Below, piece after piece: positions 2,538 through 63,931 of a stretch of DNA of 64,000 nt; the first letter of the stretch is position 1, and each line of letters opens with the position of its first letter. A model generated the notes under the pieces. It saw nothing but the letters and a program-made list of their open reading frames with translations. It searched no databases and was not told where the DNA came from. Source of the DNA: Bacteroidetes bacterium GWF2_41_31 (lineage in GTDB: Bacteria > Bacteroidota > Bacteroidia > Bacteroidales > F082); assembly GCA_001769215.1 (NCBI GenBank), contig MEOL01000044.1, positions 4,219-68,218 on the forward strand, given 5' to 3'. The translations under genes were made by a program, and so were the position numbers.

Positions 2538-2963
2538 TTAGTAAATTGATGGTTCTTTACGATTCCGCTTTATCACATCGCTTACCAATAAGATATTGAA
2601 GAGTATCAGGTAAATCACCAATTGCGAGAAGGTATTGATTATCAATATAATTAAATACCCCATCCCAAAAAAAGTCAAGGCTGCAACCACCATCAGGACG
2701 GTATTTAGGAAGACTGACCAGATGAGTGCATTTACACGCATCTTCATGTAATGGTCTTTTTCGATCTTTTGTTTTGAAACAGCGAGCAGCGCCAATCCTA
2801 AAAGCAAAAGAATGATGGCCATTTCATCGGCGAAATTGGTTTGGGTGATACCAAAAATAACTTTGTTCAGGTATGATGAGTAGATGGCGAACACGGGAAC
2901 ATCAAGAAAATCGGGTTTAAAATTCCTACTGATCACCAAATACGCCATGATGCAGCCGGCCAT
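2538..2963 (-). CDS. small integral membrane protein, function unknown
   Basis: Several hydrophobic helices. The long ORF start at 3167 overlaps the upstream lipoprotein gene, so an internal ATG at 2963 (or GTG at 3017) is more likely. Confidence 0.45.
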   Translation of the reverse strand: MAGCIMAYLVISRNFKPDFLDVPVFAIYSSYLNKVIFGITQTNFADEMAIILLLLGLALLAVSKQKIEKDHYMKMRVNALIWSVFLNTVLMVVAALTFFGMGYLIILIINTFSQLVIYLILFNILLVSDVIKRNRKEPSIY

Positions 2964-3024
2964 TAAACTTCCAAAGCCCGGATACTTAAATTGGTATGAT
3001 AAAAGATGAAATTTCACCGGGGTT

Positions 3025-3684
3025 CTAATTCTCAGCGGTGCTATAAAGGTAAGAGCTGATTTCGGAACCATTTTGTAAAACGACCGTGGTGTACACGAGC
3101 CCAAAACGGTGATTGACCCGGTATTTGACATTCTTAATGGCCGGGTTGAACCGGCCTGCTCCTTCAATTGTCATCGTTTTAATGTTGTAGAATCCATAAG
3201 GAAAATCATCTACATCAGATTTTGCGGTAACTGTTCGGGTGAAGGTGCCGCCGGTGGAATTTTCGCAGGTATAGGTGTCGCCTACCTTGCCATCGAATTT
3301 GGCAAGAGTGAACGATTTGCCGTCAGCATCCAACTGGTCTGCAATTCCCTCCTTGGTGAACTTCATTTTCAGGTCGCCTGTGAAATTACCGGTAGTTTCA
3401 TCGTAGGTGCCAAAGACAACATTCGACATGGTAGCCGCCAATACCTTGATGTTTGGATCGGTAATGGTTCCGGCCACATGGATCGTTGAAATGCCATTTT
3501 CGAGTTTAGTCACGGTGGCACTTACGTTTGTAATTCCGGATAAGGATGAAATCGAAAAATTATTTCCAACTTCCCCAATGGAAGATTGATCTCCCCCAAT
3601 GTCAGAACTGGATTCTTTTTTACAGCCAATAAACACCAGAGAAGTGATGATGGCAAACAAGGTAATGAAAGCAAGGTTTTTCAT
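3025..3684 (-). CDS. hypothetical lipoprotein
   Basis: Internal start MKNLAFITLFAIITSLVFIGC gives a lipobox-like signal peptide. I recognised no family. Confidence 0.55.
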   Translation of the reverse strand: MKNLAFITLFAIITSLVFIGCKKESSSDIGGDQSSIGEVGNNFSISSLSGITNVSATVTKLENGISTIHVAGTITDPNIKVLAATMSNVVFGTYDETTGNFTGDLKMKFTKEGIADQLDADGKSFTLAKFDGKVGDTYTCENSTGGTFTRTVTAKSDVDDFPYGFYNIKTMTIEGAGRFNPAIKNVKYRVNHRFGLVYTTVVLQNGSEISSYLYSTAEN

Positions 3685-4103: not shown

Positions 4104-5006
4104 ATGAAAATACATTATCGAAATATTTACAATATCCTGATAAAAGCGCTTTCAAAATGGTGGATAAAAGATCCGTTTCGCGAAAGTGCGATAATTGCCT
4201 ATTACGCGATTTTTGCGTTGCCCGGGTTGCTGGTGGTAATTATAACATCTGCCGGGTATTTTTTTGGAAACGATGCTGTAAATAATCACATAACAATCCA
4301 GTTTACATCTACTATGGGCGTTGATACTGCCGAGCAGATTCAAAATATTATTTTGCAGGCCAGCGAAGCAAAAAATTCAGTCCTGGCAACCGTTATCGGA
4401 ATTATTGTCATGATTGTGGGCGCTACCACCGTTTTTGCTCAGTTTCAAAAATCATTAAATACCATATGGGACGTAAAGGTTGATGAATCGAAATATGGTA
4501 TCTGGAGTTTTATCAGGATTCGGTTGTTCTCATTCGGGCTAATCGTTACAATCGCGTTTTTACTTATTGTTTCACTTGTTATTTCCGCTTTGCTTTCGGC
4601 TTTTGGCGATTGGTTATCGGGTCATTTTTCCGAAACATTTTTTATAACACTCCAGGTAGTTAATGTCGTTTTATCTTTTGTAATTATTACAGTTTTGTTT
4701 GCATTGATGTTCAAATTCTTGCCCGATGCAAAAATTAAATGGAATCATGTTTGGATTGGTTCCATTGTTACTGCATTTCTGTTTGATATAGGAAAATTCG
4801 GTTTGGGATTATATTTTGGAAAATTAAACCCCGGCGATGGATATGGCGCTGCAGGTTCGATTATTTTAATCATGCTTTGGGTTTCATATTCTTCAATGAT
4901 TGTTTTTTTCGGCGCCGAATTTACCCGCGCCTATGCCGATTTTATTTCGGGCAGGGTGGTTCCGACAGAAATCGCAAAATCAGATGTTCATTCTGACTCC
5001 GAGTAG
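4104..5006 (+). CDS. YihY/BrkB family inner membrane protein
   Basis: N-terminal IIAYYAIFALPGLLVV motif region, about 6 TM helices and 300 aa, typical of the YihY/virulence factor BrkB family. Confidence 0.8.
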   Translation: MKIHYRNIYNILIKALSKWWIKDPFRESAIIAYYAIFALPGLLVVIITSAGYFFGNDAVNNHITIQFTSTMGVDTAEQIQNIILQASEAKNSVLATVIGIIVMIVGATTVFAQFQKSLNTIWDVKVDESKYGIWSFIRIRLFSFGLIVTIAFLLIVSLVISALLSAFGDWLSGHFSETFFITLQVVNVVLSFVIITVLFALMFKFLPDAKIKWNHVWIGSIVTAFLFDIGKFGLGLYFGKLNPGDGYGAAGSIILIMLWVSYSSMIVFFGAEFTRAYADFISGRVVPTEIAKSDVHSDSE

Positions 5007-5218
5007 TTGTGCCCTTTTCAAAAGTCCGGTCCTTCAAATTTTCTTTCGAAAAATGGCAACTTCTTATTCTGTTAATGCCGTAATAGTGATTACTAACTTA
5101 TTAAATGGTTGCATCCCGCAAAAGTGGGAATGATGTAATATATTCTAAAAATCATTTAAGGTTCACTTACTAAAACTCATTACCTTTGGTTAAGAGATTA
5201 ATCTTTAAACATGGTAAC

Positions 5219-6825: not shown

Positions 6826-6987
6826 AATCTATATAGTAACAGGTCTCGATTGAAAACAGGGATAATCCCATGAGTTGATAAATAGGGCTATGATGAATCA
6901 AAAAAAATGAAGACCAGAAATTAATGATAAAACCGAGCGGATTCCGAAAAGCTTTATGAGTAGGAAAAATTAAATAATAAGTGTCCT

Positions 6988-8820: not shown

Positions 8821-8845
8821 CCTGCCTTCGGCAGGTAAACCTGCC
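8821..8845. repeat. REP-like nested hairpin (CCTGCC-TTCG-GCAGG / GGCAGG-TAAA-CCTGCC)
   Basis: Overlapping perfect palindromes read directly. It belongs to the same family as 10814, 14874, 44548 and 59844. Confidence 0.8.
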
Positions 8846-8859
8846 GACTAGTGCCACTA

Positions 8860-9294: not shown

Positions 9295-10755
9295 ATGCTC
9301 AAGACTCTTATTTACGCAACTATTTTTTTATTTGTAAGCCAGGCTTACTCTCAGGGTCAAATAAAACAAATTGATTATGGAAAACTTCTTTTTAATTCAT
9401 ATCCAACATATGATATGGTTGTTGATCTTGGAGAAGGTAAATTTGTAATGCCAATTGTAACACTAAAAAAACAAGCTTTACTTGATTGCTATAGTTATGA
9501 TTTACAGAAGATTTATAGTACACCTTTTAGGCAGTCCATCAATTCAAAAAAAGACAAATTTGCTTTAATTACATCATTTCATGAAAATTCAAAGACGCTA
9601 TATGCATTAAGGCAGGATAATTCAAATAATAAGTATTTCATTGAATATCTAAAAATTGATCCGAAATCAGGTAAAACAATTGATCAGGAAATACTTTTAA
9701 AGGACCAGCAGTTCCCAAATGCGTATTATTTCTCCGATAATAAAGAATATTTTGTTGTTATACCTCTAATTAGTTTAAATGGTCTATACGAATATGAGCT
9801 ATTCAATTATAAAGGAGAAAAATTGTACACCTCAATAATAGAGAACAAAGAAGCTCAAAGTTTTTCTGGCTTATTAAATGTAATGACAGTTTCTGATCAT
9901 GGTGACGTTTATGTTGAACGCAGACTTGATGAAGGACACTATTCATTCGATGCTTTTGATGTTTCCGGGAAGGAGATTGTAAGACTCCCATTAAAAATTG
10001 AAAGTAAAAATGGAGAAGTTGTCGATCTTATTATGACTAAATCCGGCGATAGAGAGATCATAGTTACAGCATTACTCGGAGATAAAAAGAACTTTGAACT
10101 TAAAAATTGGGTTATTGATTTCAAAAAACAAGAATTGCAGTTGATTAGTTCTTTTGACATCAATGAAGAAATAATTGGCAAATATATGGCCAGTCTTGAT
10201 AAGGCTCAGATAGTGAGTGTTAAAACACCAAAACCAACCAATAATTTCAAGGACTTAAGTATAGTAAAGATACATTACGTGGAAGGCCAGATAATTGCTG
10301 TGCTTGAATCATATGAATACACAAGGGGAATGCTTGGAACAACTAGTGCGTGGGGTACAAGTAACGATACATATATTATTTCAACAAAATTGAATGGTGA
10401 TTTGAACTGGGTATTTGCGTTACCGAGAAAAGTTGCTCAAAGTCTGTCAAAATATAAATTATTTGGGCCAATGGGAGAAACGGTTAAAGTAAAAACTGAT
10501 GTAATTGATGGTGTTTTAAAAGTTATTACAACGGAAAATTACTCAAATGGAAATTACGGCTATGAAGTACTTAGGGAGATTGATTTATCAACGGGTGAAG
10601 TATCATTTCCAAAAAGATTGCAAAATAAAGAAAATGCAGTATTTGATTTTTCATTTTATGACTACTACAAATGGATAAGTACTGATGAAATAATAATGAT
10701 GACAGCAAAAGGATTTGGCTTTAAACTAGTCAAGATTAATACAAAAAATAAATAG
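9295..10755 (+). CDS. hypothetical secreted protein
   Basis: Signal peptide MLKTLIYATIFLFVSQAYSQ. The gene is AT-rich, and I recognised no family. Confidence 0.6.
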   Translation: MLKTLIYATIFLFVSQAYSQGQIKQIDYGKLLFNSYPTYDMVVDLGEGKFVMPIVTLKKQALLDCYSYDLQKIYSTPFRQSINSKKDKFALITSFHENSKTLYALRQDNSNNKYFIEYLKIDPKSGKTIDQEILLKDQQFPNAYYFSDNKEYFVVIPLISLNGLYEYELFNYKGEKLYTSIIENKEAQSFSGLLNVMTVSDHGDVYVERRLDEGHYSFDAFDVSGKEIVRLPLKIESKNGEVVDLIMTKSGDREIIVTALLGDKKNFELKNWVIDFKKQELQLISSFDINEEIIGKYMASLDKAQIVSVKTPKPTNNFKDLSIVKIHYVEGQIIAVLESYEYTRGMLGTTSAWGTSNDTYIISTKLNGDLNWVFALPRKVAQSLSKYKLFGPMGETVKVKTDVIDGVLKVITTENYSNGNYGYEVLREIDLSTGEVSFPKRLQNKENAVFDFSFYDYYKWISTDEIIMMTAKGFGFKLVKINTKNK

Positions 10756-10813
10756 CGCCACACCGCAATGCATTTACTTCATGGAAGTATACAGTCTGAA
10801 CCTTTCTGACTAC

Positions 10814-10848
10814 GGCAGGTTCACCTGCCTACGGCAGGTAAACCTGCC
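10814..10848. repeat. REP-like tandem hairpins GGCAGG-TTCA-CCTGCC-TAC-GGCAGG-TAAA-CCTGCC
   Basis: Two perfect 6-bp stems read directly, with a third pairing possible between them. Confidence 0.8.
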
Positions 10849-10875
10849 GTGGGTAGATAAACCGACATACAAGTT

Positions 10876-11243
10876 CCCCTGCGCTGTCATATTATTCCCA
10901 CGCAATTCTTCCTAAATTGTGCGCATTTATTCAATCGGATGGTGATACCAAAAGCATCCCGACAAACTTGTTACCAAAACCTGACAATCGAATCCGTAAT
11001 TTCTTAACCACCAATGTAAAACCAATAAAATTAATTCCTAGATTTACACCACCAAACACCCGATGATCTATTTACAATGAAGAAGAATGAAACCGATTAA
11101 ACAAATTATAAACGACTGAAATTGAATAATGTATTGAGAATGAAATTAAATAACTACCAAAAGGAACTACATCAACTGTACCCTTATTATATATATAGCG
11201 GAAATAAACACAATAGTAAGGTAGTTAGCACGTAGTTAGCTGC
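10876..11243 (+). repeat. conserved non-coding element, copy 3 (5' variant II, divergent 3' end)
   Basis: It aligns with copy 2 from CCCTG..GTCATATTATTCC through the core. It ends in GTAGTTAGCACGTAGTTAGCTGC, 20 nt before ATG 11264. Confidence 0.8.
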
Positions 11244-11263
11244 AACTTTAACAAAGTACATAT

Positions 11264-12307
11264 ATGAATAATAGTTCGAGTTCAAGTGTCTTAACAGTAT
11301 TTTATTCGTGGCAATCAGATCTTCCTCCGGAAAATAATAAAAAAGCAATAAAAGGAGTATTAAGAGATGTATTTACGAATATTGAAGAGGAAATTAATGA
11401 ATTGGAAATATTTCTTGATGAAGCCACAAGAAATACTGCTGGTAGTCCAGATATACCATCAACTATTTTTGATAAAATTGAAGCATCTGATATTTTCATT
11501 TGTGATCTTACGACAATAAACAGTGACTCACCAATAGGAACAAGAAAAGTTCCAAACCCAAATGTTTTAATCGAATTAGGTTATGCAATAGCTTTATTAG
11601 GTTGGAATCGAATTATCATGCTATTTAATAAAGCACACGGTATTTTTCCAGATGATTTACCATTTGATATTGCAAAAAGACGCATTACAAATTTCAAAAT
11701 GGAAAATGGAAATGATAAAAATTCAAAAGGAAACATACAAGCAATTTTAAAAAAAGCGATAATAACCATCATCGAACAAAAACCAGTTAAACCATTTGAA
11801 AACAAAGGTTTAAAACCTCTTGAAAAAAAAACTAGAAGAGATATTACAAATATCGTTTGGGCTCTAAAAACTATTAACATACCTATCTTGGACGAATTCA
11901 TTTCGGAGTTGCCTTTTAAAATCAACAGTAAGATATTTCATTTTTGGGAAGGATTTAACGGAGTAATAAATAGCAGTCTATTTCATGTATATGATAATAC
12001 AGTTATGTTATTATTTAAAGAAATACATACTCATTGGGAAAACACCTTATCATTTGGACATAAATATAACGCAATAGACAAATTTGGCAATGCTATATTT
12101 GGAAGTCCAGATGATCCACGAACTGACCAAAGAACACAAGATGATTATAAATTTATTGGCGAAGAAAGAATAAAATTAAAAAATGATTTTCGGACAATAT
12201 TGGATTATATAAGAATTAATTATATAGATATTGACTTGGAAGAAACGAGTCAATATGCTCTCGATGAGTATAATAATTTTTATAAAGGATTCCATTCAAA
12301 TTACTAA
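11264..12307 (+). CDS. TIR-like / nucleoside 2-deoxyribosyltransferase-like N-terminal domain protein with an unknown C-terminal domain
   Basis: N-terminus VFYSWQSDLP .. SDIFICDLT .. NPNVLIELGYAIALLGWNRIIMLFN resembles the Rossmann-like TIR/NDT/SLOG superfamily pattern. I did not recognise the C-terminal ~170 aa. Confidence 0.5.
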   Translation: MNNSSSSSVLTVFYSWQSDLPPENNKKAIKGVLRDVFTNIEEEINELEIFLDEATRNTAGSPDIPSTIFDKIEASDIFICDLTTINSDSPIGTRKVPNPNVLIELGYAIALLGWNRIIMLFNKAHGIFPDDLPFDIAKRRITNFKMENGNDKNSKGNIQAILKKAIITIIEQKPVKPFENKGLKPLEKKTRRDITNIVWALKTINIPILDEFISELPFKINSKIFHFWEGFNGVINSSLFHVYDNTVMLLFKEIHTHWENTLSFGHKYNAIDKFGNAIFGSPDDPRTDQRTQDDYKFIGEERIKLKNDFRTILDYIRINYIDIDLEETSQYALDEYNNFYKGFHSNY

Positions 12308-12314
12308 AAAAGCA

Positions 12315-12438
12315 GCAGCTAACAAAGATGCATATACTTTATGGCGGGTTACGTTATGAAAATGAGTATTTTAGTTCCAAATATAAATCATGGTAGACAG
12401 AAAGATTTGTCTTTCAAAGTCCGACACAAAGCATATGC
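12315..12438 (+). repeat. direct repeat S1 (upstream flank of the R-M unit)
   Basis: GCAGCTAACAAAGATGCATATACTTTATGGCGGGTTACGTTATGAAAATGAGTATTTTAGTTCCA...GACAGAAAGATTTGTCTTTCAAAGTCCGACACAAAGCATATGC recurs at 14812-15018. Confidence 0.85.
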
Positions 12439-12533
12439 ACGCCCGCTAGAGTCAATTTAAAGTGCGTCAGCGTAATGAAATACTTGATTTAAAAACACTA
12501 TTTTTGAAAAATTGCATTACTTAAAAAACTCTC

Positions 12534-13283
12534 ATGAAGAAATTAGATTTATCGAAAGTAAAGAAATATGTTGAGGATAATGTAGGTGAGTTCCACCAAA
12601 AAAGGATTGATAAGCTTGGACTATTGAAACTAAAAGATGTTTTAAGAAGAAAAAACCCTTATTTATTTAAGGCGAAAAATATTATGACAGCTCAAGAATT
12701 GATACAAGGAGTTGTTGATGCATATATTTCTTCTAGTGAAGAAGGGATTTTTGGGAATTGGCTTGAAGGATTAGCCGTATTCGTTAACAGACAAGTTTAT
12801 GGTGGTAGAAAATCTGGAATTCCGGGCGTTGACCTTGAATTTGACAAGGATAATATTAGATATATTGTTTCGATTAAATCAGGCCCAGACTGGGGAAATG
12901 ATGACCAAATTAAAAAGATGGTTGATAATTTTAACTCTGCACGAAAGGTCTTAAAAACATCAGGAGCCCAAATTAATGTTACTGCCATTAATGGTTGTTG
13001 TTATGGAAGGACAACACAAAGAAACAACTATAAGCCTAAAGGTGATTATTATAAATATTGCGGTCAAGTATTTTGGAGTTTTATCTCAGGAAATAATGAA
13101 TTATATAAAGAAATAGTTGAACCTCTTGGATATCTTGCAAAAGAAAAGAATGATGATTATTTGAAAGCATATGCACAAAAAATAAATCTTTTTACAAAAG
13201 AACTGGCCAATGATTTTTTTAAAGATTCTGGAGAAATTGATTGGGATAAGCTGCTCGAATTTAATTCAAAAGGAAATATTTAA
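12534..13283 (+). CDS. putative type II restriction endonuclease
   Basis: It lies immediately upstream of, and co-oriented with, a C5 DNA methyltransferase. A PD-(D/E)xK-like segment GVDLEF..IVSIKSG is present. I could not determine the family (Eco47II/TdeIII/PmeII-like) by eye. Confidence 0.55.
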   Translation: MKKLDLSKVKKYVEDNVGEFHQKRIDKLGLLKLKDVLRRKNPYLFKAKNIMTAQELIQGVVDAYISSSEEGIFGNWLEGLAVFVNRQVYGGRKSGIPGVDLEFDKDNIRYIVSIKSGPDWGNDDQIKKMVDNFNSARKVLKTSGAQINVTAINGCCYGRTTQRNNYKPKGDYYKYCGQVFWSFISGNNELYKEIVEPLGYLAKEKNDDYLKAYAQKINLFTKELANDFFKDSGEIDWDKLLEFNSKGNI

Positions 13284-13344
13284 TAATTTGCCAAAATTTT
13301 TGATAAAATCTAGCAAAAAGTATCTAATTTTGGTACTTTAATAT

Positions 13345-13360
13345 ATTTCGTTAACGAAAT
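13345..13360. promoter_or_regulatory. perfect 16-bp palindrome ATTTCGTTAACGAAAT, candidate operator
   Basis: The palindrome was read directly. It ends 15 nt upstream of the methyltransferase ATG, and that protein carries an N-terminal HTH. Confidence 0.4.
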
Positions 13361-13374
13361 TAAATAAGGTACCT

Positions 13375-14793
13375 ATGATAAGTGTTGAAGATGCATCAAA
13401 GAAATTAAATATTTCTCCACAGCAAGTGAGAAATCTGTGTAGGTCTGGAAAACTAAAAAGCGAGAAAGTTGGTAATACTTGGGTAATTGAGGATTCAATT
13501 CTTGAATACTATTTTGATACAACCTGTTCAGGGGTTGCAGAAGACCAAGTGAAATATGAAAAAACACCAGCCTCTAAAGAATCTCCTATAGCTTTGAGTT
13601 TTTTTAGTGGAGCTATGGGATTGGATATAGGCATTGAAAAAGCTGGTTTTAGAACAATATTTGCGAGCGAAATCAATAATGCTTGTAGAAAAACGATATT
13701 AAAAAATAAGCCAGAAATAAATCTAATTGGTGATATTAGAGATTATACGTCACATGAAATTCGTAATATATCGGGCTTATCTGAAAATGATGATATTGAT
13801 TTAATTATTGGAGGACCTCCTTGTCAATCTTTTAGTACCGCTGGAAAAAGGAAAGGTTTTGAAGATGAAAGAGGAAATGTTTTTCTCACATATATAGACA
13901 TAATAATTGCTCTTAGACCTAAATATGCTGTTATTGAAAATGTTAGGGGATTATTATCAGCGCCTTTAAAACATAGACCTCATAATTATAGAGGAGAAGG
14001 TTTTGAGGAATTAACAGAAGATGAATTACCTGGAGGAGCTTTAAATCATATCATTAAGAAATTAAAAGACAGTGGATATGCTACTTCATTTAATTTATAT
14101 AATTCAGCCAATTTTGGAACGCCACAAAAAAGAGAAAGAGTTATTTTAATATGTTCAAGAGATGGTAAAAAAGCTCCTTATTTAGAACCAACGCATTCTG
14201 AAAATGGAAATTTTAATTTGCCTAAATGGAAAACTTTTAGAGAGACAGTTAGTCATTTAGAAAATTGTCAACATGATTATATCAATTTCCCTGACAAGAG
14301 GTTACAATATTATAAACTTATAACACAAGGAAATAATTGGCGAAGTTTACCGATCGACCTACAAAAGAAAGCGATGGGAGCATCATTCTTTTCAGGAGGT
14401 GGCAAAACTGGTTTTCTAAGGAGGTTGGCTTGGGATGAACCAAGCCCAACACTATTAACTCATCCAGCTATGCCAGCAACGGATCTTTGCCATCCAGAAG
14501 AAAACAGACCACTAAGTATCCAAGAATATAAAGCAATTCAAGAATTTCCAGATGGTTGGAAAATAGAAGGAAGCATTCTTGAGCAATATAAACAAATTGG
14601 AAATGCTGTACCAGTAGGTTTGGGTTTTGCAGTAGGCAGTTTATTAATGAAATTAATCAAGGGGGTAAAAATTAAGAACTATATTGGCTTCAGATTTTCA
14701 AGATATTTAAATACTGATGAATTAAATTGGAAAAGAGACTTTGATAAGCAGAGAAAGATCGAAATTCAAGCTCAATTAGAGTTGCAAACATAA
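13375..14793 (+). CDS. DNA (cytosine-5)-methyltransferase with an N-terminal helix-turn-helix extension
   Basis: C5-MTase motifs I FFSGAMGLDIG, IV GGPPCQSFSTAG, VI ENVRGL, VIII QKRERV and X GNAVPV are present. The first ~50 aa (ISVEDASKKLNISPQQVRNLCRSGKLKSEKVGNTWVI) look like an excisionase/MerR-type HTH. Confidence 0.92.
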   Translation: MISVEDASKKLNISPQQVRNLCRSGKLKSEKVGNTWVIEDSILEYYFDTTCSGVAEDQVKYEKTPASKESPIALSFFSGAMGLDIGIEKAGFRTIFASEINNACRKTILKNKPEINLIGDIRDYTSHEIRNISGLSENDDIDLIIGGPPCQSFSTAGKRKGFEDERGNVFLTYIDIIIALRPKYAVIENVRGLLSAPLKHRPHNYRGEGFEELTEDELPGGALNHIIKKLKDSGYATSFNLYNSANFGTPQKRERVILICSRDGKKAPYLEPTHSENGNFNLPKWKTFRETVSHLENCQHDYINFPDKRLQYYKLITQGNNWRSLPIDLQKKAMGASFFSGGGKTGFLRRLAWDEPSPTLLTHPAMPATDLCHPEENRPLSIQEYKAIQEFPDGWKIEGSILEQYKQIGNAVPVGLGFAVGSLLMKLIKGVKIKNYIGFRFSRYLNTDELNWKRDFDKQRKIEIQAQLELQT

Positions 14794-14811
14794 TAGAATA
14801 AAAGGGAAACT

Positions 14812-15018
14812 GCCGCTAATAATGCATATACTTTATGGCGGGTTAAGTTGTGAATATAAGTATTTTAGTTCCACTTATCTGCCGGTTTACCTACCTTCAT
14901 GCCTTCGGTAGATAAATCGGTAGGTGAACCTACCGTAGGAACGGAGGCAGGAGGCATGAAATATAAATTATCTTGGACAGAAAGATTTGTCTTTTGAAGT
15001 CCGCCACAAAGTGTATGC
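14812..15018 (+). repeat. direct repeat S2 (downstream flank of the R-M unit), interrupted by a REP-like insertion
   Basis: It is collinear with S1 except for about 86 nt at 14874-14959, which carry REP hairpins bounded by TTCATGCC...GGCATGAA. Confidence 0.85.
14874..14959. repeat. REP-like hairpin cluster inserted in S2
   Basis: Contains GGTAGG-TGAA-CCTACC (14919-14934) and an 8-bp terminal inverted repeat TTCATGCC/GGCATGAA. This segment is absent from S1. Confidence 0.75.
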
Positions 15019-15159
15019 TTCCCATTAAATAAGGAATTTGAGATGAACCTACCGAAAATGAATGGAATTTTGTGCTTTCAGTCATTTCTGCAATACCTGT
15101 AAATCCCGCTTTTGAGGCGTAATAAGTGATTCGTTGATTAACAACAACTGGCCGTAACG

Positions 15160-45557: not shown

Positions 45558-47657
45558 TCATTCTTTCAATTCGTTCATGATAAACCCAAAAATTTCTGCT
45601 TTGTCCTTAATTCGTGAACTCAGTGTAAATGATCCATAATGCCCCACATCTTTCATGACTTTAAGCAGTACGGGATTGGTTTGAACGGCTCTGTTTTGCA
45701 GTCGTGCCACGAATTTATACGAATGAAAGGGGGGTACACGATCGTCATTTTCGGATGTAACTACCAACATCACAGGATAGTTGATTTCCTCCTTAATATT
45801 TTGATAAGGTGAATAGGTCAAAAGGTTAACAAAACTGGCGCTGTCTGTCGTTGTGCCAAATTCGGGTGTGTTAAAATGTCCAACCGTAAATTGTTCACTT
45901 CTGATCATATCCATTGGGGCTACAACGGGAACCACCACTTTAAACAAATCAGGCCGTTGTATGGCTGCTGCGGCCACTACCAGACCTCCGTTGGAGATTC
46001 CCGTGATGGCCAGCCTATCGGGATTTGTATATTTTTTTTCGATGAGAAATTCGGCTGCCGAAATAAAGTCATCAAAGGAGGTTTGTTTGTGTTTACCTCT
46101 TCCCTGTTTTGCCCAAACGATGCCTTTTTCGCCGCCGCCGCGGATGCTTGCAAAGGCATAAATTCCACCCTCATGAATAAAATGAACGATGGCCGGATCG
46201 AAGGATGGCTTTTCAACAACCCCAAATCCACCATAAGCTTCCAGAATCATCGGATTATTTCCATCCGGTATTAACCCTTTCTCATACACCAGGATTATGG
46301 GGATGGTTACACTATCGGAAGTGAGACATTCCAGCTCTTTATATTCGATGTTCTGGTAATCGAAAGTTACTCTTGTTGTTTTGGTAGGTTTATCTTTAAA
46401 TGTCTTGATATTAAAACGATAAACGACAGGGGGGATGGTATATGTCGACACACTGTACAGTACTTCTTCATCGTTGGGATTGCCGTTAAAACCGCGCACA
46501 GTGGTGGCAAGTTGAAAATCCATCCGGTGTAATAACTTTCCGTCATAATCAGCTATTGTGATGAGCTGATGCTGACCCTCCTTATAAATCAGTATCATGC
46601 GATCGGCGAAAGGAATCGCTTTTATAAGCAGTGCCTGTTTATATTCAGGTACAATTTCGCGCCAGTTATATAGGTTTGACGGATCAATTTCCACAATATT
46701 TCCATTGTTGTTTAAATAGGTATTGAAGCCAATAAATTTGCCGTTATGGTATTCGATGAGGTTCAGGTTGAACGATATATTGGACAGTAAAGGTCGCAGC
46801 TGAGTTGTTTCGGATTCGTAATCAATAAAGTAAAAGTTGATTTTATTGATTTCTTTGTTGTATTCCTTCAGAATAAAAAACCGCTCTTCGTCCAGTGTCT
46901 GAAAACTGAATTCCCTGTCGGGATGCTCACTTCTTTCAAAAATGAGTACGTCGTCACCTTGTTCGGTTTCTAATGAATGGTAAAACACCTTCTGTCCATA
47001 AGTTTTTCCAAAAGTCCCCTGTTGTTCGTAGGTTGAATAAAAGAAACCGTTGTCCCGCCATACGATATCAGAAAATTTGAGGCCGGTCAAATGATCATTC
47101 AAGTATCGCCGGGTAATGAGTGAAACGATCTTTAATTCGACAAAATCGCTGCCATCCCGGTTATAAGTAAACGCCATGTATTTTGAACCTTTCGATACAG
47201 TGTAATCTTTAATATCGATATAGTTGGCACTCGAAATATCCATGGGGTTCACGATAATCATGGGATCGGCATTCACCGATTTTTGATAAAATAGTGCCGG
47301 TACATTGTTGTCGTTGTAGTAGGCATAGGTAAAATAGTAGTCGCCTACTTTATGAGGAAACTCGAAATCAGCGTGCCTGTATTTATCAATACTTGGATAC
47401 GACTGGGTTTTGTTGGATGATATTGCAAGATATCTTTTTGCCAGTTTTTCCTCGCTTTTGAGCCAGTCCTGGGTTTCCGGGCTTGTTACGTTTTCCATCC
47501 GCCGGTATTTATCTTCCACAATGTAGTGATGATAAAATGTGTCTGTTACAGTAGATTCCGGGGCAACAATGCGTTCGTAGGTTTGTGCCCGGGTGTTTAA
47601 ACTTACTATCAGAATGGCTATACACAGGATAGTTCTATTCATTTTTCTATTGATCAT
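45558..47657 (-). CDS. S9-family prolyl oligopeptidase
   Basis: N-terminal beta-propeller region plus a C-terminal alpha/beta hydrolase with the nucleophile context GISNGGLVV. Confidence 0.9.
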   Translation of the reverse strand: MINRKMNRTILCIAILIVSLNTRAQTYERIVAPESTVTDTFYHHYIVEDKYRRMENVTSPETQDWLKSEEKLAKRYLAISSNKTQSYPSIDKYRHADFEFPHKVGDYYFTYAYYNDNNVPALFYQKSVNADPMIIVNPMDISSANYIDIKDYTVSKGSKYMAFTYNRDGSDFVELKIVSLITRRYLNDHLTGLKFSDIVWRDNGFFYSTYEQQGTFGKTYGQKVFYHSLETEQGDDVLIFERSEHPDREFSFQTLDEERFFILKEYNKEINKINFYFIDYESETTQLRPLLSNISFNLNLIEYHNGKFIGFNTYLNNNGNIVEIDPSNLYNWREIVPEYKQALLIKAIPFADRMILIYKEGQHQLITIADYDGKLLHRMDFQLATTVRGFNGNPNDEEVLYSVSTYTIPPVVYRFNIKTFKDKPTKTTRVTFDYQNIEYKELECLTSDSVTIPIILVYEKGLIPDGNNPMILEAYGGFGVVEKPSFDPAIVHFIHEGGIYAFASIRGGGEKGIVWAKQGRGKHKQTSFDDFISAAEFLIEKKYTNPDRLAITGISNGGLVVAAAAIQRPDLFKVVVPVVAPMDMIRSEQFTVGHFNTPEFGTTTDSASFVNLLTYSPYQNIKEEINYPVMLVVTSENDDRVPPFHSYKFVARLQNRAVQTNPVLLKVMKDVGHYGSFTLSSRIKDKAEIFGFIMNELKE

Positions 47658-47942: not shown

Positions 47943-48228
47943 GGTATAGGGTTTTAGACGTGAGATCAATCTCAATACCCCACATCGCCCAAAAGTAATT
48001 CACCAAAATAATGACTCTAAAAATCAAACCATTAAAATAAATCCCTAGATTTACCCCGCCAAACACCCGATGATCCATTTGCAATGAAAACAAAGAACCG
48101 ATTTAACTAATTATAAACGGTTATGATTGGATAATATAGTGACGATGAAATTAAATGAATACTAAAAGGAATTTTAACAACAAAGGCTTTATAATAGGCA
48201 AAGCGACAATTGTCGGTTCACAGATGTT
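47943..48228 (+). repeat. conserved non-coding element, copy 4 (5' variant I)
   Basis: It aligns with copies 1 and 5 along the full length. It contains the perfect palindrome CGACAATTGTCG (48204-48215) and ends at GATGTT, 35 nt before ATG 48264. Confidence 0.85.
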
Positions 48229-48263
48229 GGGTACAATTTTACGAAAGACAACAAAACAAACCA

Positions 48264-49271
48264 ATGACACATTTTCCAGTAACAAATTCTAATCTTTCAG
48301 CAACACATATAGGACTGTTTTTACAGGAAAAATATTCCTTGAGCAAAGACACCAAATGCCAATTAATAAAAGCTGGTATCAATGACACATACCTGGTAAC
48401 CGACAACATAGACAAATTTGTATTTAGAGTTTATAGTTTAAATTGGCGTTCAAAAACGGAGATTGATGAAGAAATTAAATTGCTGAATCAACTAAAAGCA
48501 AATGCCCTTTCAATTTCCTATCCACTTTCAGACAAAGAAAGCAACTACATACAAACACTAAACGCCCCGGAAGGTGACAGATTTGCAGTGCTTTTTACAT
48601 TTGCATCTGGTGAAAAACAACACGTAATTTCAGAACAAACTCATTTTCAAATTGGTCAACTTATGGCTCGACTTCATAAGATAACCAATAATCAGAAATT
48701 AAATCGCATAGACTATACACCCGAAGTAATTCTTATTGACTCATTAAAAAAAGTATCAGTCTTTTTGAAGAGTGATACAGAAGAAATGAACTTTATGAGA
48801 TCGGCTCAAACATACTTGTTAAAGGAGTTTGAAAATGCTGACATTTCGCAAATTAGACAAGGAATTGTTCATCTTGATATTTGGTTTGACAATCTAAACA
48901 TCACCACCGACAACCAGGTAACTATTTTCGACTTCGATTTCTGCGGAAACGGTTGGCTTTGCTTAGATATTGCTTACTATATTTTACAGCTTCACAACCT
49001 TGAGAAATATGAAGCTAAAGATTATCAACCTAAAGTTGACAGTTTTATTAAAGGGTATGAATCTGTAACATCAATAAAAGCAGAAGAAAAACGACTTACT
49101 CCAATGCTTGGTGTAAGTTTATACTTTTTCTATTTAGGTGTTCAATGTCAGCGTTACGACAATTGGTCGAACTCCTTTTTGAGTGAGAACTATTTGAAAA
49201 GATTTATCAATGGACTTGTTAAAAGGTACTATGATATTTATAAACTTGGGGACAATAAAAACTGTGCCTAA
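48264..49271 (+). CDS. phosphotransferase enzyme family protein (APH / homoserine-kinase-II-like)
   Basis: Catalytic loop HLDIWFDN and IFDFDF (DFG-like). The TTG at 48210 lies inside the repeat, so the ATG at 48264 is preferred. Confidence 0.75.
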   Translation: MTHFPVTNSNLSATHIGLFLQEKYSLSKDTKCQLIKAGINDTYLVTDNIDKFVFRVYSLNWRSKTEIDEEIKLLNQLKANALSISYPLSDKESNYIQTLNAPEGDRFAVLFTFASGEKQHVISEQTHFQIGQLMARLHKITNNQKLNRIDYTPEVILIDSLKKVSVFLKSDTEEMNFMRSAQTYLLKEFENADISQIRQGIVHLDIWFDNLNITTDNQVTIFDFDFCGNGWLCLDIAYYILQLHNLEKYEAKDYQPKVDSFIKGYESVTSIKAEEKRLTPMLGVSLYFFYLGVQCQRYDNWSNSFLSENYLKRFINGLVKRYYDIYKLGDNKNCA

Positions 49272-49466
49272 CAGCAGCTTCCCAAAAGTGGCAGTTCAAT
49301 GGTTAAATCATCCCGAAGCTTGCGGGATTGTGCTTCTATCAAGGTTTGCGGTATATTTGCAGTGAAGTGCTTCGAAATCGCCACCTTCGTATGCAAAACA
49401 TTATACACATGGTTGAGTACCCAAAATCCAACCCATGGATGAATAGAAATTAAAAAAGTAAGTCCT

Positions 49467-49757
49467 ATGAAAAGATTATTTATTCTTGTTATAGCCATGA
49501 CAACAGGTATTTGTATTTCTATTGCACAGAATCCTGTTTGGATGAATTACACCAATGGTGAGACCATTTCAGCAATAGCAGAAGATAACAAAAGTGTTTG
49601 GATAAGAACAATGGCCGGTTTAGTAAAATTTGACAAAACGTCGGAAATGTTAACCTATTTTACAGCTGCAAATTCGCCATTACCTCACAACATGATTTCT
49701 TCAATTGCCATCGACGGGTCTTTTATTCCCGGCAGATCTCATATCCAAATAGAGTAG
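49467..49757 (+). pseudogene. N-terminal fragment of a two-component-regulator-propeller (Reg_prop) sensor protein
   Basis: A signal peptide is followed by WMNYTNGETISAIAEDNKSVWIRTMAGLVKFDKTSE..NMISSIAIDG, typical of Reg_prop repeats. It ends after 96 aa at a G9 tract. Confidence 0.55.
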
Positions 49758-49812
49758 GGGGGGGGATTGTCCCATTTGTTGGAGGGTGGAGTTAAAGCAA
49801 TCACCTGAGACT

Positions 49813-49944: not shown

Positions 49945-52467
49945 TTACTGAATCACCACCTTCCTTACTTCTGTGAAGTCATTTATTTGGATCTTTACGA
50001 AATAAAACCCTTTCGAAAGGTTGGTCAGGTTCAGAGTGGTTTTTTCGCCATACCAGTCAAATTGATTGATCGTGTTGCCCGTAAGGCTGGTGATGCGAAC
50101 ATCCGCTTTCTCAAAGGTAGTTTCTCCGTGAAATTCAAGCTGCATCAAACCATTGGAAGGGTTTGGAAAAAGAGAAATATAGGAGCCGAGGTTGTAATAG
50201 TTTTCGTCAATTGAAACGATCTCACCACCATCAATCGGCATGTCAGCAAAGGTAACCAGATTACAGGCTACATTCAACTCAGGGTTAAAGCCGGCACTGC
50301 AATCATCACAAGTAACTCCGGTTTCGCAATTGGGGTTGTTCGGATGGCATAAATCAACATAATTTTCATAAAAAACATAGCGCAACCCCAGTGTTTCGCC
50401 GGCAATATAGGGCGTTAAATTGTAATCGAACCAGGGGGCGATCGATCCCGGGCACCATCCGGCGCGGTCGTAGTACCATGTTCCGTTCTGTGGTTGACAG
50501 GCATCAGGATTGGGGTTGCAATCGACCCAGTTATGCTGTTCGAAAGTTTCTACCCCGTTTATCCATACGTGGTGCGTCGCTTCATAAAATTCGGCAGCAT
50601 TTGAGGTGTTGAGGTCGCCCCATCCATGGCCTGTAGAAACAAGTTTCAATTTTGCAGCTGCTGCGTTTTCTGCAAAGGTATGGCTCTTAACTTCCACGGG
50701 TTGTAAATCGGCATAGTCGCCAAATGGATAGACATCCCACCAAATATTGTCAATCAGGCTGTAATTGTGTTGTGGACTTCCTTCGTTGAAATTAAATTTT
50801 AGGTCGTATAAGTATCCATTGTCCAGCGTACCGCAATTTAACCTGAAAGAAACCTTACCCTGAAGTATCGACATATAATCTGTCAGGTCGATGGTGTGAG
50901 AACAGGCTACGCCATAAGGAGTGATATACCTGATAATTTCAACCCATTTTCCATCGTAACCCCTTGCATCGACACTTGCAACCCGGTCCCATTCACCGCA
51001 ACCGCCATCGGGGCAATTTACCTCCAAAGTGGCCACTATTTGATCAAATGCACCCATATAGCAGGGTAATTCGGCATCCACCACTTCCGAGGTATTGCCC
51101 GGGTTGAGCCATACATCGTCAACAGCCAGTACCTCCACGTCAGAAACAGCACTCACGACATTAATGTTGACATTTTTAGTGGCTGTGTAGCCGTAATTAT
51201 TGGTGGCTGTAATGGTTATCACATAATTGCCATAAGCGGGTACGGGCCACCATCCTGAATAATAACCTTCGCCCCAATCTGTGGGATCCAATTCCTGCCC
51301 ATTAACGCTAAACCGCACACTTGTTACCGAAAACAAATCAGGATATTCGATGTTTACATAAGCAGCCAGTTGAATATATCCAAGTTCAGGAACCATTACA
51401 TTTCCGGTAAGTGGGTTAACTGCCTCAATTTGGGGGACATGAGTAGACGGGTCAATGACCATAAATGAATTTAAAACAGGGGAGGCCGGGTCATAGGTGC
51501 CATTTCCTGGTTGGGTAGCTTCAATAACTACCTGGCCGGGACTTCCGGTCAGGGTTACGGTATTGCCGTCAATGGTTGCCGGACCTGATATCACTTCAAA
51601 AAATACTTCCAGACCAGAGGTTGCAGTGGCTACAAGGTCAAATGGTGCATCAGTTGTCAGGTGATGTGGTATCTGAGGGAAGGAAATAGCCTGATAACCA
51701 GGGTCGAGGGTGCCGTTAAAGTTGGAAGTAGCTCCTATTAGCGCGAAATTCATTAACTCAGCATTCCTTTCACCGGAGCCGGTTTCAGAAATGAGATGGG
51801 TTATGGAAGTGTTATCACCTCCGGGTTCTCCCTGATTAAACTTGTAATACAATTGCAGGTGTTCTTCAGTGCCCGTTAGCTCATTGTTCTTTATATCCTG
51901 TACTTCACTTTGTGACAGTCCTTTATCCCATACGCTAACCTCGTCGATCCTTCCTCCATAAACAAAATTGTATCCTCCAAGCAAACTTTTGCCGATACCA
52001 AAAGGTACATCGGGATTTGAAAACTGGCCAGAAGCAGGAGAACTACCCTTAAGAGCACCATTGACATACAGTAATACTGAGCTACCGTCATAGACCCATG
52101 CAAAATGTTGCCAAACCTGAGGTATGGCCGTATTAGCGGGTGCTACATATTCATGAAGTCCGGTGGTGGTTCTCAATCGACATTCCATTACGCCGTTATT
52201 CAATTGAATCATGTAAAATTCACCATTACCTGAACCCAGTCTGAATCCCATATAACCTTGTCCATAGGCCAGCTCATCGCACCAAAACCATCCGGTAATG
52301 GACAATGCATTTCCGGTTGGAACATACTGACCGGCTCCTTCAAGTATTACATAATCGTCTACCATATCGAAATGGAGGTACTGATTGGATTGGGACATTA
52401 AAAATACAGGCTGCAAAAAAGTTAAGAAGAGCAGCGTAAGTCGGAATACTTTGTAGATTTTTTTCAT
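49945..52467 (-). CDS. secreted LamG-like / PNGase-F-like multidomain protein with a T9SS type A sorting domain
   Basis: Signal peptide and an N-terminal concanavalin/LamG-like region. DRAGWCPG is a motif I associate with PNGase F C-terminal-like domains. The C-terminal FPNPSNG...GFYFVKIQ...VVIQ is the T9SS signal. Confidence 0.65.
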   Translation of the reverse strand: MKKIYKVFRLTLLFLTFLQPVFLMSQSNQYLHFDMVDDYVILEGAGQYVPTGNALSITGWFWCDELAYGQGYMGFRLGSGNGEFYMIQLNNGVMECRLRTTTGLHEYVAPANTAIPQVWQHFAWVYDGSSVLLYVNGALKGSSPASGQFSNPDVPFGIGKSLLGGYNFVYGGRIDEVSVWDKGLSQSEVQDIKNNELTGTEEHLQLYYKFNQGEPGGDNTSITHLISETGSGERNAELMNFALIGATSNFNGTLDPGYQAISFPQIPHHLTTDAPFDLVATATSGLEVFFEVISGPATIDGNTVTLTGSPGQVVIEATQPGNGTYDPASPVLNSFMVIDPSTHVPQIEAVNPLTGNVMVPELGYIQLAAYVNIEYPDLFSVTSVRFSVNGQELDPTDWGEGYYSGWWPVPAYGNYVITITATNNYGYTATKNVNINVVSAVSDVEVLAVDDVWLNPGNTSEVVDAELPCYMGAFDQIVATLEVNCPDGGCGEWDRVASVDARGYDGKWVEIIRYITPYGVACSHTIDLTDYMSILQGKVSFRLNCGTLDNGYLYDLKFNFNEGSPQHNYSLIDNIWWDVYPFGDYADLQPVEVKSHTFAENAAAAKLKLVSTGHGWGDLNTSNAAEFYEATHHVWINGVETFEQHNWVDCNPNPDACQPQNGTWYYDRAGWCPGSIAPWFDYNLTPYIAGETLGLRYVFYENYVDLCHPNNPNCETGVTCDDCSAGFNPELNVACNLVTFADMPIDGGEIVSIDENYYNLGSYISLFPNPSNGLMQLEFHGETTFEKADVRITSLTGNTINQFDWYGEKTTLNLTNLSKGFYFVKIQINDFTEVRKVVIQ

Positions 52468-58627: not shown

Positions 58628-58920
58628 AGCATGAAATTTTACTAAATCAATTTAGATTTAACTTTCTTATGCATATTAGCTGATATACAACATCTTAAAA
58701 AAAATAAATGTAACAGTGTGTAAAAATAAAATATTAAATAATACAATCCGTTTTTCTTCCAGTATTTTTTTTCAGGTTCCACAAAATATTTGATTCAGTC
58801 TTGCTAAAAAGATGCAGATTTCTCTCGTAAAAAAAATAAAAAAGAACCGCCGAATTTATCCCTGACATGCATGTCAGCAACTGCCAGACTCAGTAGTGGG
58901 AGGATGATTCTCCTGGCGGA

Positions 58921-59162
58921 CAGGTTTTAAAAGTGAAATCAACCTCCATAACCTCCCATTGCCCCAAAAATAAATCACCAGAATAATGACTCTAAAATTT
59001 AAACCAATAAAATTAATTTCTAGATTTACACCCTCCAAACACCCGGTGATCCATTGCAATGAAGAAGAAAGAAACCGATTTGACTAATTTTAAAAGAAAA
59101 TAATTGATGCATATAGTGATAATGAAATTTTAGCGATCACCTTAATGCTCCCATGCAGACTT
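58921..59162 (+). repeat. conserved non-coding element, copy 5 (5' variant I, internal deletion of about 55 nt)
   Basis: It aligns with copies 1 and 4 to AATGAAATT, then resumes at TAGCGATCACC..ATGCAGAC. It ends 41 nt before ATG 59204. Confidence 0.8.
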
Positions 59163-59203: not shown

Positions 59204-59770
59204 ATGAAACGGGGAACATTTATTTTATCGGCACTTGCACTCATTCCATTGGGTATTTTTGCTAAAATCAGAACCAGCATTTTTATGAGAACAGAAAAAG
59301 GGTTCAAAGTAAAAGCTGGCGAAGCCCGATTTGGGGAACACTATAAAATGAAAGGCGTCACACTAAATAACTTAGACATAAAAATCTCCGGGGCTGACAC
59401 CGATCATGATTTAGCTGTGTTTGAGCAAACCGGATTTACACCAAATGGCGGGCCTCCATTGCATATTCATCCATTTCAGGACGAATGGTTTTATGTAATT
59501 GAAGGAGAATATTTATTTCAGGTTGGTGATGACAAATATCAAATGAAATCAGGAGACACCATTTTTCTTCCACGAAATGCGCAACACGCCTTCATGCAGT
59601 TATCGGAAAAAGGAAAAATGATCGTATCTTATTTGCCGGCAGGAAAGATGGAAGCCTTTTTTAAGGTTACGGACAAATGGACCTCTCCACCGACAAAAGA
59701 AGAAATCGTACAAGTTTTTGCTGACCACGACATGGAAGTTGTGGGCGAACCACTTAAAGCTGACAATTAG
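59204..59770 (+). CDS. cupin-domain protein with signal peptide
   Basis: HIHPFQDEWFYVIEGE ... GDTIFLPRNAQHAF form the two cupin motifs. Confidence 0.75.
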   Translation: MKRGTFILSALALIPLGIFAKIRTSIFMRTEKGFKVKAGEARFGEHYKMKGVTLNNLDIKISGADTDHDLAVFEQTGFTPNGGPPLHIHPFQDEWFYVIEGEYLFQVGDDKYQMKSGDTIFLPRNAQHAFMQLSEKGKMIVSYLPAGKMEAFFKVTDKWTSPPTKEEIVQVFADHDMEVVGEPLKADN

Positions 59771-59843
59771 TATAAACCACGAACCGCTAACAACATGTAT
59801 TTGGAACTGAAAGAATTCGGGATGGGTAAATTGGTAAACCTTT

Positions 59844-59912
59844 CTGCCGGCCAGGCAGGTATAAGTCCAATGCATCCCTGTCTCTGCCTTCGGCAGGAAA
59901 TCCGGCAGGCAG
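59844..59912. repeat. REP-like hairpin cluster
   Basis: CTGCC-GGCCA-GGCAG, CTGCCTTCGGCAG and CCGGCAGGCAGG, the same family as 8821 and 10814. Confidence 0.7.
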
Positions 59913-60889: not shown

Positions 60890-61113
60890 CATTAACCTAA
60901 CAAATCATTTAGATTATTAAAATGCTCAGTTTCTACTGTTCATCTAAATGTCAATTCCGGGTTTTTTTATCGAACTTATTCAATCGGTATTTAATGGTTA
61001 TCATGGCATATTTGTAGTTATCCCCCCAAGTGAACTCCCCTTTCTATCCCCTGTTTGTTAATGCATAACAGAATTACCTACCTTTATGCGATTAATATCA
61101 AACTAAATGATAA

Positions 61114-61477
61114 CCCCCCGCTGGCGCAAGTTTGCAACTTGTGCCTTTCCTTCACCCAAGCCCTGTTAACCCAACTTGTGCGCATTTCGCCAGGCATAGC
61201 ATGTAACTTAGAGAATCTCAACTACCTTATTACCAAAACCTGACAAACAACTCCATAAATTCTTAGCCCCCAATGTAAAACCAATAACATTAATTCCTAG
61301 ATTTACCATTCCAACTCCCGATGATTGGTTACAATGAAGAAGAAAGAAACCAATTTGACTAATTATAAACGGTAATAATTGGAGCATAAAAGATAATGAG
61401 GTTAAATGAAAACCAAAGGACGTTATAACAATAAAGTCTATAACAGTCATAGCGACAAGTGACGGCATGTGGATGTT
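61114..61477 (+). repeat. conserved non-coding element, copy 6 (5' variant II with P module)
   Basis: The P module (GGCGCAAGTTTGCAACTTGTGCC...AACTTGTGCGC) is followed by CTTATTACCAAAACCTGACAAAC and the common core. It ends at GATGTT, 12 nt before ATG 61490. Confidence 0.85.
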
Positions 61478-63677: not shown

Positions 63678-63815
63678 ATTACAAACACAATCAAATACTA
63701 TCGTAACATATTGTTTATTAACGTCCATATTTCTGTTTTCGAAAAGCCCCCCTCTCTCGTCCTCGTTTGAGCGCAGTGGTAACGAGCTTGCAATTTTGCC
63801 AATCATTTTGGAAAG

Positions 63816-63931
63816 CCCCACCTGGCGCAAGTTTGCAACTTGTGCCTTTCTCTTCAGCCAAGCCCTGTTAACCCAACTTGTGCGCATTTAGCCAGGAATA
63901 GAATGTAACATAGAGAATCTCAACATACTTA
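63816..63931 (+). repeat. conserved non-coding element, copy 7 (P module only; diverges before the window end)
   Basis: CCTGGCGCAAGTTTGCAACTTGTGCCTTTC..CAGCCAAGCCCTGTTAACCCAACTTGTGCGCATTTAGCCAGG..GAGAATCTCAAC matches 61120-61230. Confidence 0.8.

Follow-up and report, generated by a model that had tools for sequence, protein, structure and literature searches.

A small-molecule kinase gene in Bacteroidetes bacterium GWF2_41_31 is, we conclude with a probability of about 0.8, an integron gene cassette immobilized by decay of its attC recombination site. The gene lies in a 64-kb stretch of contig MEOL01000044.1 (the window), part of a Bacteroidota metagenome-assembled genome with SusC/SusD genes and genes with type IX secretion system (T9SS) tails. 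It occupies positions 48264–49271 (+ strand), between an S9 peptidase gene on its left (45558–47657, − strand) and a PNGase-like gene on its right (49945–52467, − strand), and is immediately preceded by a copy of a non-coding repeat of ~275 nt, hereafter the element (47952–48226, +). Integrons are best known from Proteobacteria and are little described in Bacteroidota.

The kinase reading frame is intact, encodes 335 aa and matches the Pfam APH family (2.8e-16). Its start is most likely the ATG at 48264, which yields the length seen in homologs, rather than the TTG at 48210 chosen in a mechanical list of open reading frames (ORFs). Distant matches include models of type II homoserine kinases, all below cut-off, and structures of amicoumacin kinase and an aminoglycoside phosphotransferase. 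The protein is thus predicted to be a small-molecule kinase of the APH/type II homoserine kinase/amicoumacin kinase superfamily, with matches that lie below family cut-offs. We compared the locus with that of three relatives (L006, which is HGW-Bacteroidetes-16, L008 and L017) and with more distant contexts of the gene (L020–L035, where L022 is Flavobacterium terrigena). The best 120 of 1,555 kinase homologs share 77–93% amino acid identity and come from Pedobacter, Daejeonella, Flavobacterium, Saprospiraceae, Crocinitomicaceae and Bacteroidales. Because identity remains this high across orders while that of the adjoining S9 peptidase drops from 95–96% in L006, L008 and L017 to 51% and 45% in the genomes that come next, we judge the kinase gene to be horizontally mobile across several Bacteroidota orders.

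The vehicle of this mobility is indicated by genomes in which the kinase is one unit in an array of short genes sharing one direction (L022, L027/L028, L030 and L034). Between successive genes of these arrays lie repeats of ~137 nt with the structure RYYYAAC...AAAACGTTRRRY, which start with RYYYAAC just past the stop codon and end in AAAAC-GTTRRRY. An alignment of 16 array repeats gives a two-arm hairpin with compensatory changes in 16 of its 18 predicted pairs, and intact copies from L030 form a long-range hairpin as single-stranded DNA (ssDNA). At the L030 junctions that we checked, the first bases of a cassette complement its own R'' box (GTTAGCGGC, for example, pairs with GCCGCTAAC). On the strength of these boxes, the covarying hairpin, the ssDNA fold and the complementarity between 5' end and R'', the intergenic repeats are attC sites. 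A covariance model built from 16 Bacteroidota attC sites (R1) detects 12 such sites in 13 kb of L030; a second model (R2) was built from the same set without the ortholog of the kinase attC (15 sites). The same kinase cassette also occurs outside arrays, beside a biotin carboxylase in L031 and with one other gene in L024, and off-array insertion is therefore recurrent. The textbook array of L030 additionally holds two copies (2905–3518 and 10443–11052) of a ~560-nt cassette that lacks an ORF and has a short (~60-nt) attC; its start, GTTATGTAGG, perfectly complements its R'', CCTACATAAC.

Homology defines the 5' end of the cassette. Across eight independent contexts, upstream similarity begins at a GTT box (GTTAGGCAC, GTTAGGTAC, GTGAGGCAC and similar), which in the window is the R'-type core site GTTGGGTAC (48226–48234, +). 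The 36 nt before the ATG have a mean pairwise identity of 0.82 in these contexts, against 0.55 at positions −80 to −45, a value near that of unrelated sequence with the aligner used. Cross-context identity thus delimits a leader of 37 nt (48227–48263, +) that travels with the gene. With an arrow marking the presumed crossover point, the boundary reads G↓TTAGGCAC and G↓TTAGGTAC elsewhere and G↓TTGGGTAC in the window, which would place the crossover between G48226 and T48227. The 5' box can pair with R'' of the same cassette (TGTGCCTAAC): in L030, GTTAGGCACA is complementary at 10 of 10 positions, the box of L031 at 9 of 10, and in the window GTTGGGTACA matches the reverse complement of TGTGCCTAAC at 8 of 10, two transitions having lowered the match. 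A first-pass annotation of the window, made from its letters without database searches, had described the phosphotransferase gene as an integron-type cassette whose 5' end lies at the terminal G↓TT of a conserved element, and the comparison supports both this assignment and the choice of the GTT box as the boundary. Its observation that the box at the stop codon resembles the 5' boundary at 7 of 9 positions finds its explanation in the perfect complement of L030 and the 8 of 10 retained here. Taken alone, the boundary boxes are weak evidence: GTTGGGTAC with at most one mismatch occurs 18 times in the window where 9.5 are expected, and GTTRRRYAC occurs eight times where six are expected. From these frequencies, the chance of a second copy within ~150 nt of the gene is therefore a few percent.

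The segment that follows the gene is identified as an attC by descent and by covariance score, its pairing having decayed. It is collinear with the intact L030 site, both running from GCCTAAC through AAAAGTGGC...GCCACCTT to AAAAC and then the R' box. R1 matches 49263–49408 (+) with 43.4 bits (E 3e-7) and R2 with 39.5 bits (E 1.4e-6), or 39.6 bits with filters off, and these are the best matches of the two models in the window. Covariance scoring, which the first-pass annotation had proposed as a check, is thus significant with our own Bacteroidota models (E ~1e-6). R'' is GCCTAAC (49266–49272), which fits RYYYAAC and overlaps the stop codon TAA (49269–49271); in L017, L020, L024, L030 and L031 the gene is likewise followed by this box, in agreement with its earlier designation as a boundary box. 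The inner stem pairs AAAAGTGGC (49284–49292) with GCCACCTT (49380–49387).

The earlier description holds in its letters and in part of its interpretation. The strings it quoted are all present as reported (CACAGATGTTGGGTAC, 48219–48234; CACATGGTTGAGTAC, 49406–49420; GTGCCTAAC, 49264–49272, which contains the stop codon), as are the pairings of AAAGTGGC (49285–49292) with GCCACCTT and of ATCCCG with CGGGAT (49310–49315 and 49323–49328); the former proves to be the inner stem that is conserved across attC sites of this family. The 3' boundary was misplaced. It had been set at GTTGAGTAC (49412–49420, +), whose GTTGAGT (49412–49418) fits the consensus, yet the homologous R' lies at 49400–49406, and GTTGAGTAC is a second R'-like box 12 nt past it. 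At the homologous position the window reads ATTATAC, a departure from GTTRRRY, where L017 has GTTATAC (followed by GTTGAGAAC) and L030 has GTTAGCG. Non-standard pairs make up 8 of the 22 model pairs in the window copy, and the L''/L' stem is gone. The claim of an attC-like 3' segment therefore survives as to score and descent and fails as to fold. Because the stems are broken and ATT has replaced GTT, excision of the cassette is probably no longer possible, and we consider its attC very probably inactive.

Comparison with close relatives reveals that the locus is polymorphic as a block. In L006, the closest relative, whose flanking genes are 93–96% identical, the sequence corresponding to window position 47949 is joined to that at 49787, so that the element, the kinase cassette and a second cassette remnant (47950–49786) are absent, the gap extending as far as the PNGase-like gene's terminator. 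L017 carries, between the same flanks, the element, the kinase cassette and a full-length propeller-repeat/T9SS gene that adds ~1.9 kb. At this locus, L008 retains the element's left part, and its sequence differs from 48122 on. In the window, the second cassette-like unit (49401–49786, +) consists of the truncated propeller-repeat/T9SS-tail gene, of which the first 96 codons remain as a 96-aa ORF (49467–49757, +; full-length in L017), followed by ~70 nt of filler (49720–49786, +) that is identical in five independent assemblies. The unit thus cannot be called solo, as the first-pass annotation had it, given that a truncated second cassette shared with L017 lies directly downstream. Nor does an empty site exist at the boundaries it proposed; the sole empty allele, that of L006, lacks the whole of 47950–49786. 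No alleles differing exactly by the cassette were found in L006, L008 and L017, and neither a clean target-site duplication nor a G↓TT-to-G↓TT junction could be resolved for 47950–49786, where similar flanking sequences allow several alignments.

The element upstream of the kinase begins with G↓TTTTAGA and ends with ...CACAGATG↓TT. Seven copies are present in the window (starting at ~4037, 6572, 8948, 10970, 47952, 58925 and 61229), all on the + strand, all upstream of + strand accessory genes and falling into two subtypes distinguished by their left ~100 nt. The genes that follow are unrelated to one another and include BrkB/AI-2E transporters, a metallophosphoesterase, a 486-aa protein of unknown function, the TIR-domain and kinase genes, a cupin and a cNMP-binding regulator. 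The core AACACCCGATGATC occurs seven times against 0.55 expected, and CCAAACACCCGATGATC is near-invariant among the copies. In four of five full copies, homology halts at the terminal GTT, with unrelated sequence beyond; type-1 copies also begin at G↓TT. The kinase cassette starts exactly at this terminal GTT, and a cassette encoding a TIR-domain protein, described below, starts 11 nt past the corresponding GTT. The element contains TAGATTTAC, which resembles TAnnTTTG, the Bacteroidota −7 box.

Several other identities for the element were considered. It is not a coding remnant, as its ORFs, those on the minus strand (MDHRVFGGVNL...) as well as small ones on the plus strand, shift frame or lose their start between copies. 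Nor does it behave as a structured RNA or an attC: the RNAalifold consensus (−5.6 kcal/mol) has local stems only, with a positive covariation term. Three sub-segments folded as ssDNA gave z values of 0.05, −1.88 and −0.87 with no end-to-end pairing, and R1 and R2 do not match the element. Searches against plasmids, phages and viral contigs returned no match to the element, no recombinase gene lies beside any of its seven copies, and Rfam, at gathering and E-value thresholds, has no match at either the kinase locus or the element. A sigma-70 promoter and terminator scan found nothing above background, and such a scan does not cover Bacteroidota promoters. In L022, a different repeat that is not an attC (TTTTTTGTGGGAATTATTTTATATTTACAA...) occurs in three copies (1080–1200, 3420–3585 and 4850–5012), two of which end in ...TATGAG↓TTA right before different cassette sequences, a parallel to the element of the window.

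Three rearrangement breakpoints, independent of one another, map to the left end of the element (G↓TTTTAGA). One is the junction between the window and L006 at 47950. A second, in L017, corresponds to 47952 and is accompanied by loss of most of the S9 peptidase gene and by 21 nt of filler. The third separates the window from HGW-Bacteroidetes-16 at about 58925–58966, the left end of another element copy. At this last site HGW-Bacteroidetes-16 has 8.6 kb of its own (L036, 1125–9760, against window 58870–58965) between a LacI gene and the unit formed by element and cupin gene; this extra segment codes for a hybrid two-component sensor and for a T9SS protein of 1205 aa. For the 486-aa cargo gene that follows the copy at 8948, we found only one homolog (75% identical) and no conservation of the flanks, which makes this gene uninformative. 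A 120-nt direct repeat (~90% identical; 61112–61229 and 63813–63931), with a palindrome-like GGCGCAAGTTTGCAACTTGTGCC, brackets one element copy and three genes (cNMP-binding, FAD monooxygenase and a 132-aa ORF).

A second cassette can be recognized in the window by the same features. It carries a TIR-domain gene (11264–12307, with a weak Pfam match to CAP12/Pycsar TIR), spans 11235–12453 (+) and starts with G↓TTAGCTGC (11235–11243). Its 5' box, GTTAGCTGC, exactly complements its R'', GCAGCTAAC (12315–12323). Its attC (12314–12453) scores 31–33 bits, still folds into the family hairpin and has GCTAGAG as R'; it and the kinase site are the only attC detectable in the 64 kb. Tandem R'-like boxes 11–12 nt apart occur at both confirmed cassette junctions (11224–11243 and 49400–49420, with GTTAGCACGTAGTTAGCTGC and ATTATACACATGGTTGAGTAC) and could have arisen through duplication of core sites or been left behind by cassettes since lost.

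Downstream of the TIR cassette, an EcoO109I-type restriction endonuclease and a C5 cytosine methylase are followed by a third attC-like relic (12534–15030 in all; relic at ~14808–15030, GCCGCTAAT...). This relic, which R1 and R2 missed, resembles the TIR attC and is split by an insert of ~80 nt resembling a repetitive extragenic palindrome (REP). The REP-like sequence is a short, GC-rich hairpin repeat (CCTGCCTTCGGCAGGTAAACCTGCCG) found at 8821–8846, 10805–10868, 14898–14923 and 59883–59908, in intergenic positions within clusters of accessory genes; it is one of these copies that interrupts the relic. The cupin gene (59204–59770) is followed, 13 nt past its stop codon, by ACCGCTAAC (59783–59791), which is complementary at 7 of 9 positions to TTTAGCGAT (59129–59137), a sequence within the element copy ahead of the gene, located where this copy departs from the rest of the family. 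Going by these boxes, the cupin gene may be a fourth cassette, inserted within an element rather than at its end.

These data lead us to propose the following route for the kinase gene. The folded attC of the cassette would have been joined to the terminal GATG↓TT of the lineage-specific element by an integron integrase whose gene lay elsewhere or in an earlier host, much as cassettes enter attI or off-target attG sites. A second cassette, with the propeller/T9SS gene, lies directly downstream and was later truncated in the lineage of the window. The element may supply transcription of the cassette. After insertion, the attC lost its L''/L' stem and the GTT of its R' changed to ATT, probably putting an end to excision. 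The intact ORF suggests that the kinase gene has since been kept as an ordinary resident gene.

In its details, the cassette agrees with those of known integrons in the G↓TTRRRY 5' boundary, the promoterless ORF, RYYYAAC at the stop codon, the complementarity of R' and R'', the presence of the same gene in multi-cassette arrays elsewhere and, at the level of the family, the AAAAC-GTTRRRY end and a covarying imperfect hairpin. It differs in that the window copy is off-array and has a degenerate attC, in that no intI or recognized attI lies nearby in the 64-kb window, and in that its upstream partner is a 275-nt repeat instead of an attC or known attI. Integrons have been reported in Bacteroidota (PMC8618304, PMC9668308). 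Isolated cassettes, in the form of single attC sites lacking an integron integrase (SALIN) or small clusters of attC lacking an integron integrase (CALIN), are documented, as is insertion by the integrase into GWT sites of the genome (attG) that lie close to resident promoters (bioRxiv 10.1101/2022.09.11.507474; PMC8618304); in other bacteria, both integrase-driven insertion at such sites and expression from promoters nearby have been demonstrated (bioRxiv 10.1101/2022.09.11.507474). The best-supported reading of the locus is a small integrase-less cluster of this SALIN/CALIN kind. It shares with SALIN, small CALIN and attG insertions (bioRxiv 10.1101/2022.09.11.507474; PMC9024848) the presence of one or two integrase-less cassettes in a chromosomal intergenic position, a junction at GTT (of the GWT class) and adjoining sequence that could provide a promoter. 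Unlike in those cases, the docking point here is no random GWT but the terminus, conserved among copies, of a repeated element by which other cassette relics of the same genome are headed too, and the window attC would probably fail the structural filters of IntegronFinder. The event itself is thus of a known kind, a cassette landing off-array and losing its site, in an unusual setting beside a repeated element.

A number of observations weigh against the cassette reading. No integron integrase or other tyrosine recombinase was found among the scanned ORFs of the window; the gene tables of the L020–L035 loci likewise list no recombinase domain, as far as those loci extend. Among the relatives compared, no allele was found with the element joined directly to the sequence after the attC. 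The difference from L006 may reflect an insertion here or a deletion there, as its junctions are blurred by short similar sequences. The covariance models were built here from Bacteroidota sites and are not the attC model of IntegronFinder. The long-range hairpin of the family is absent from both the minimum-free-energy and the centroid structure of 49263–49408 (z +0.30), and ssDNA folding of 49264–49420, a further check suggested by the first-pass annotation, yields no attC hairpin on either strand and is no better than shuffles (z +0.68 and +0.16), in a test that is a weak criterion alone, since intact attC controls reach z values of only −0.8 and −1.4.

How the gene reached this position can be told in other ways. 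Ordinary vertical inheritance, with GTT and AAC boxes present by chance, would agree with the abundance of individual boxes in the window and with a local fold that is not significant, but it is already refuted: the gene is absent from the closest relative, L006, shares 77–93% identity with homologs in distant orders, has a boundary that coincides with attC ends in arrays and is followed by a segment with a covariance-model E of ~1e-6. The exact form in which the first-pass annotation cast the cassette, a single intact mobile unit bounded by a GTTGGGTAC/GTTGAGTAC repeat with a functional attC of 157 nt at 49264–49420, strikes us as very improbable. The intact ortholog and the family model place R' at 49400–49406, 8 of 22 pairs are broken with a fold no better than shuffles, the downstream gene is itself cassette-like and common to L017, and no empty site is found at those boundaries. 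In favor of this form are a repeat that is real (8 of 9 identities, with CACA upstream, and so close by chance in only a few percent of cases) and the recurrence of tandem R'-like boxes 11–12 nt apart at the TIR junction, which would allow the second box to be a used crossover.

A stronger competitor, though in our view still an unlikely one, holds that element and cargo together form a mobile unit that was moved or deleted at the left end of the element, by an unknown recombinase, a transposition-like event or repeat recombination, and that the cassette features are relics. This explanation is compatible with a cassette origin of the gene and differs on the route by which it came to the locus. 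It would account for the absence of 47950–49786 as one piece from the sole empty allele, for the three independent breakpoints at left ends of type-1 element copies, for the short similar sequences that flank the block (TTGTTGG..AG.G) and for the position of the element upstream of accessory genes in seven of seven copies. However, none of the copies has a transposase or recombinase within it or close by, neither terminal inverted repeats nor a clean target duplication is seen, and L008 keeps the left part of the element with different sequence downstream, which argues for exchange at sites within the element or at its terminus and against the transfer of an invariant block.

The element itself may be an attI-like docking site, a mobile promoter that travels with cassettes or the end of some other mobile unit. 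We speculate, with little confidence, that the ~275-nt element is a multi-copy, integrase-less platform for docking and expression of cassettes, a functional analogue of attI plus the cassette promoter Pc that has G↓TT at either end and is scattered around the chromosome, so that the lineage would maintain many mini-integrons of one to three cassettes in place of one array. Consistent with this, at least two and possibly four element copies precede cassettes whose first bases complement their own R'', relatives share the left part of the element at the kinase locus and differ downstream, homology among element copies stops at the terminal GTT, and the three-copy L022 repeat likewise ends in ...GAG↓TTA. 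The element stands to the cassettes as attI and Pc do, adjoining them at its terminal G↓TT and facing the cargo; unlike attI, it has at least seven copies per 64 kb, no adjacent intI and no similarity to known attI, and its attI-like role is putative. With putative mobile promoters it has in common that the same ~275-nt sequence stands in the same orientation upstream of unrelated genes and contains TAGATTTAC. It departs from them in that its homology ends at GTT, its type-1 copies start with G↓TT and it is tied to integron cassettes; here too the promoter role is putative.

Apart from these loci, the sole Rfam match in the window is a DUF805 RNA motif (RF03081, 58.4 bits, 6902–6970), located upstream of a calcineurin-like phosphoesterase gene and not of a DUF805 gene.

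The kinase locus illustrates how a single cassette has moved among several Bacteroidota orders and what may become of it off-array, where the gene is retained and the recombination site erodes. An attC eroded to this degree may escape structure-based integron tools; here it was recognized mainly by genome comparison. Antibiotic kinases, among them amicoumacin kinase and the aminoglycoside phosphotransferases, belong to the family of this enzyme, whose substrate is therefore worth testing. Should the element prove to be a preferred docking site, it would represent a new mode of cassette organization.

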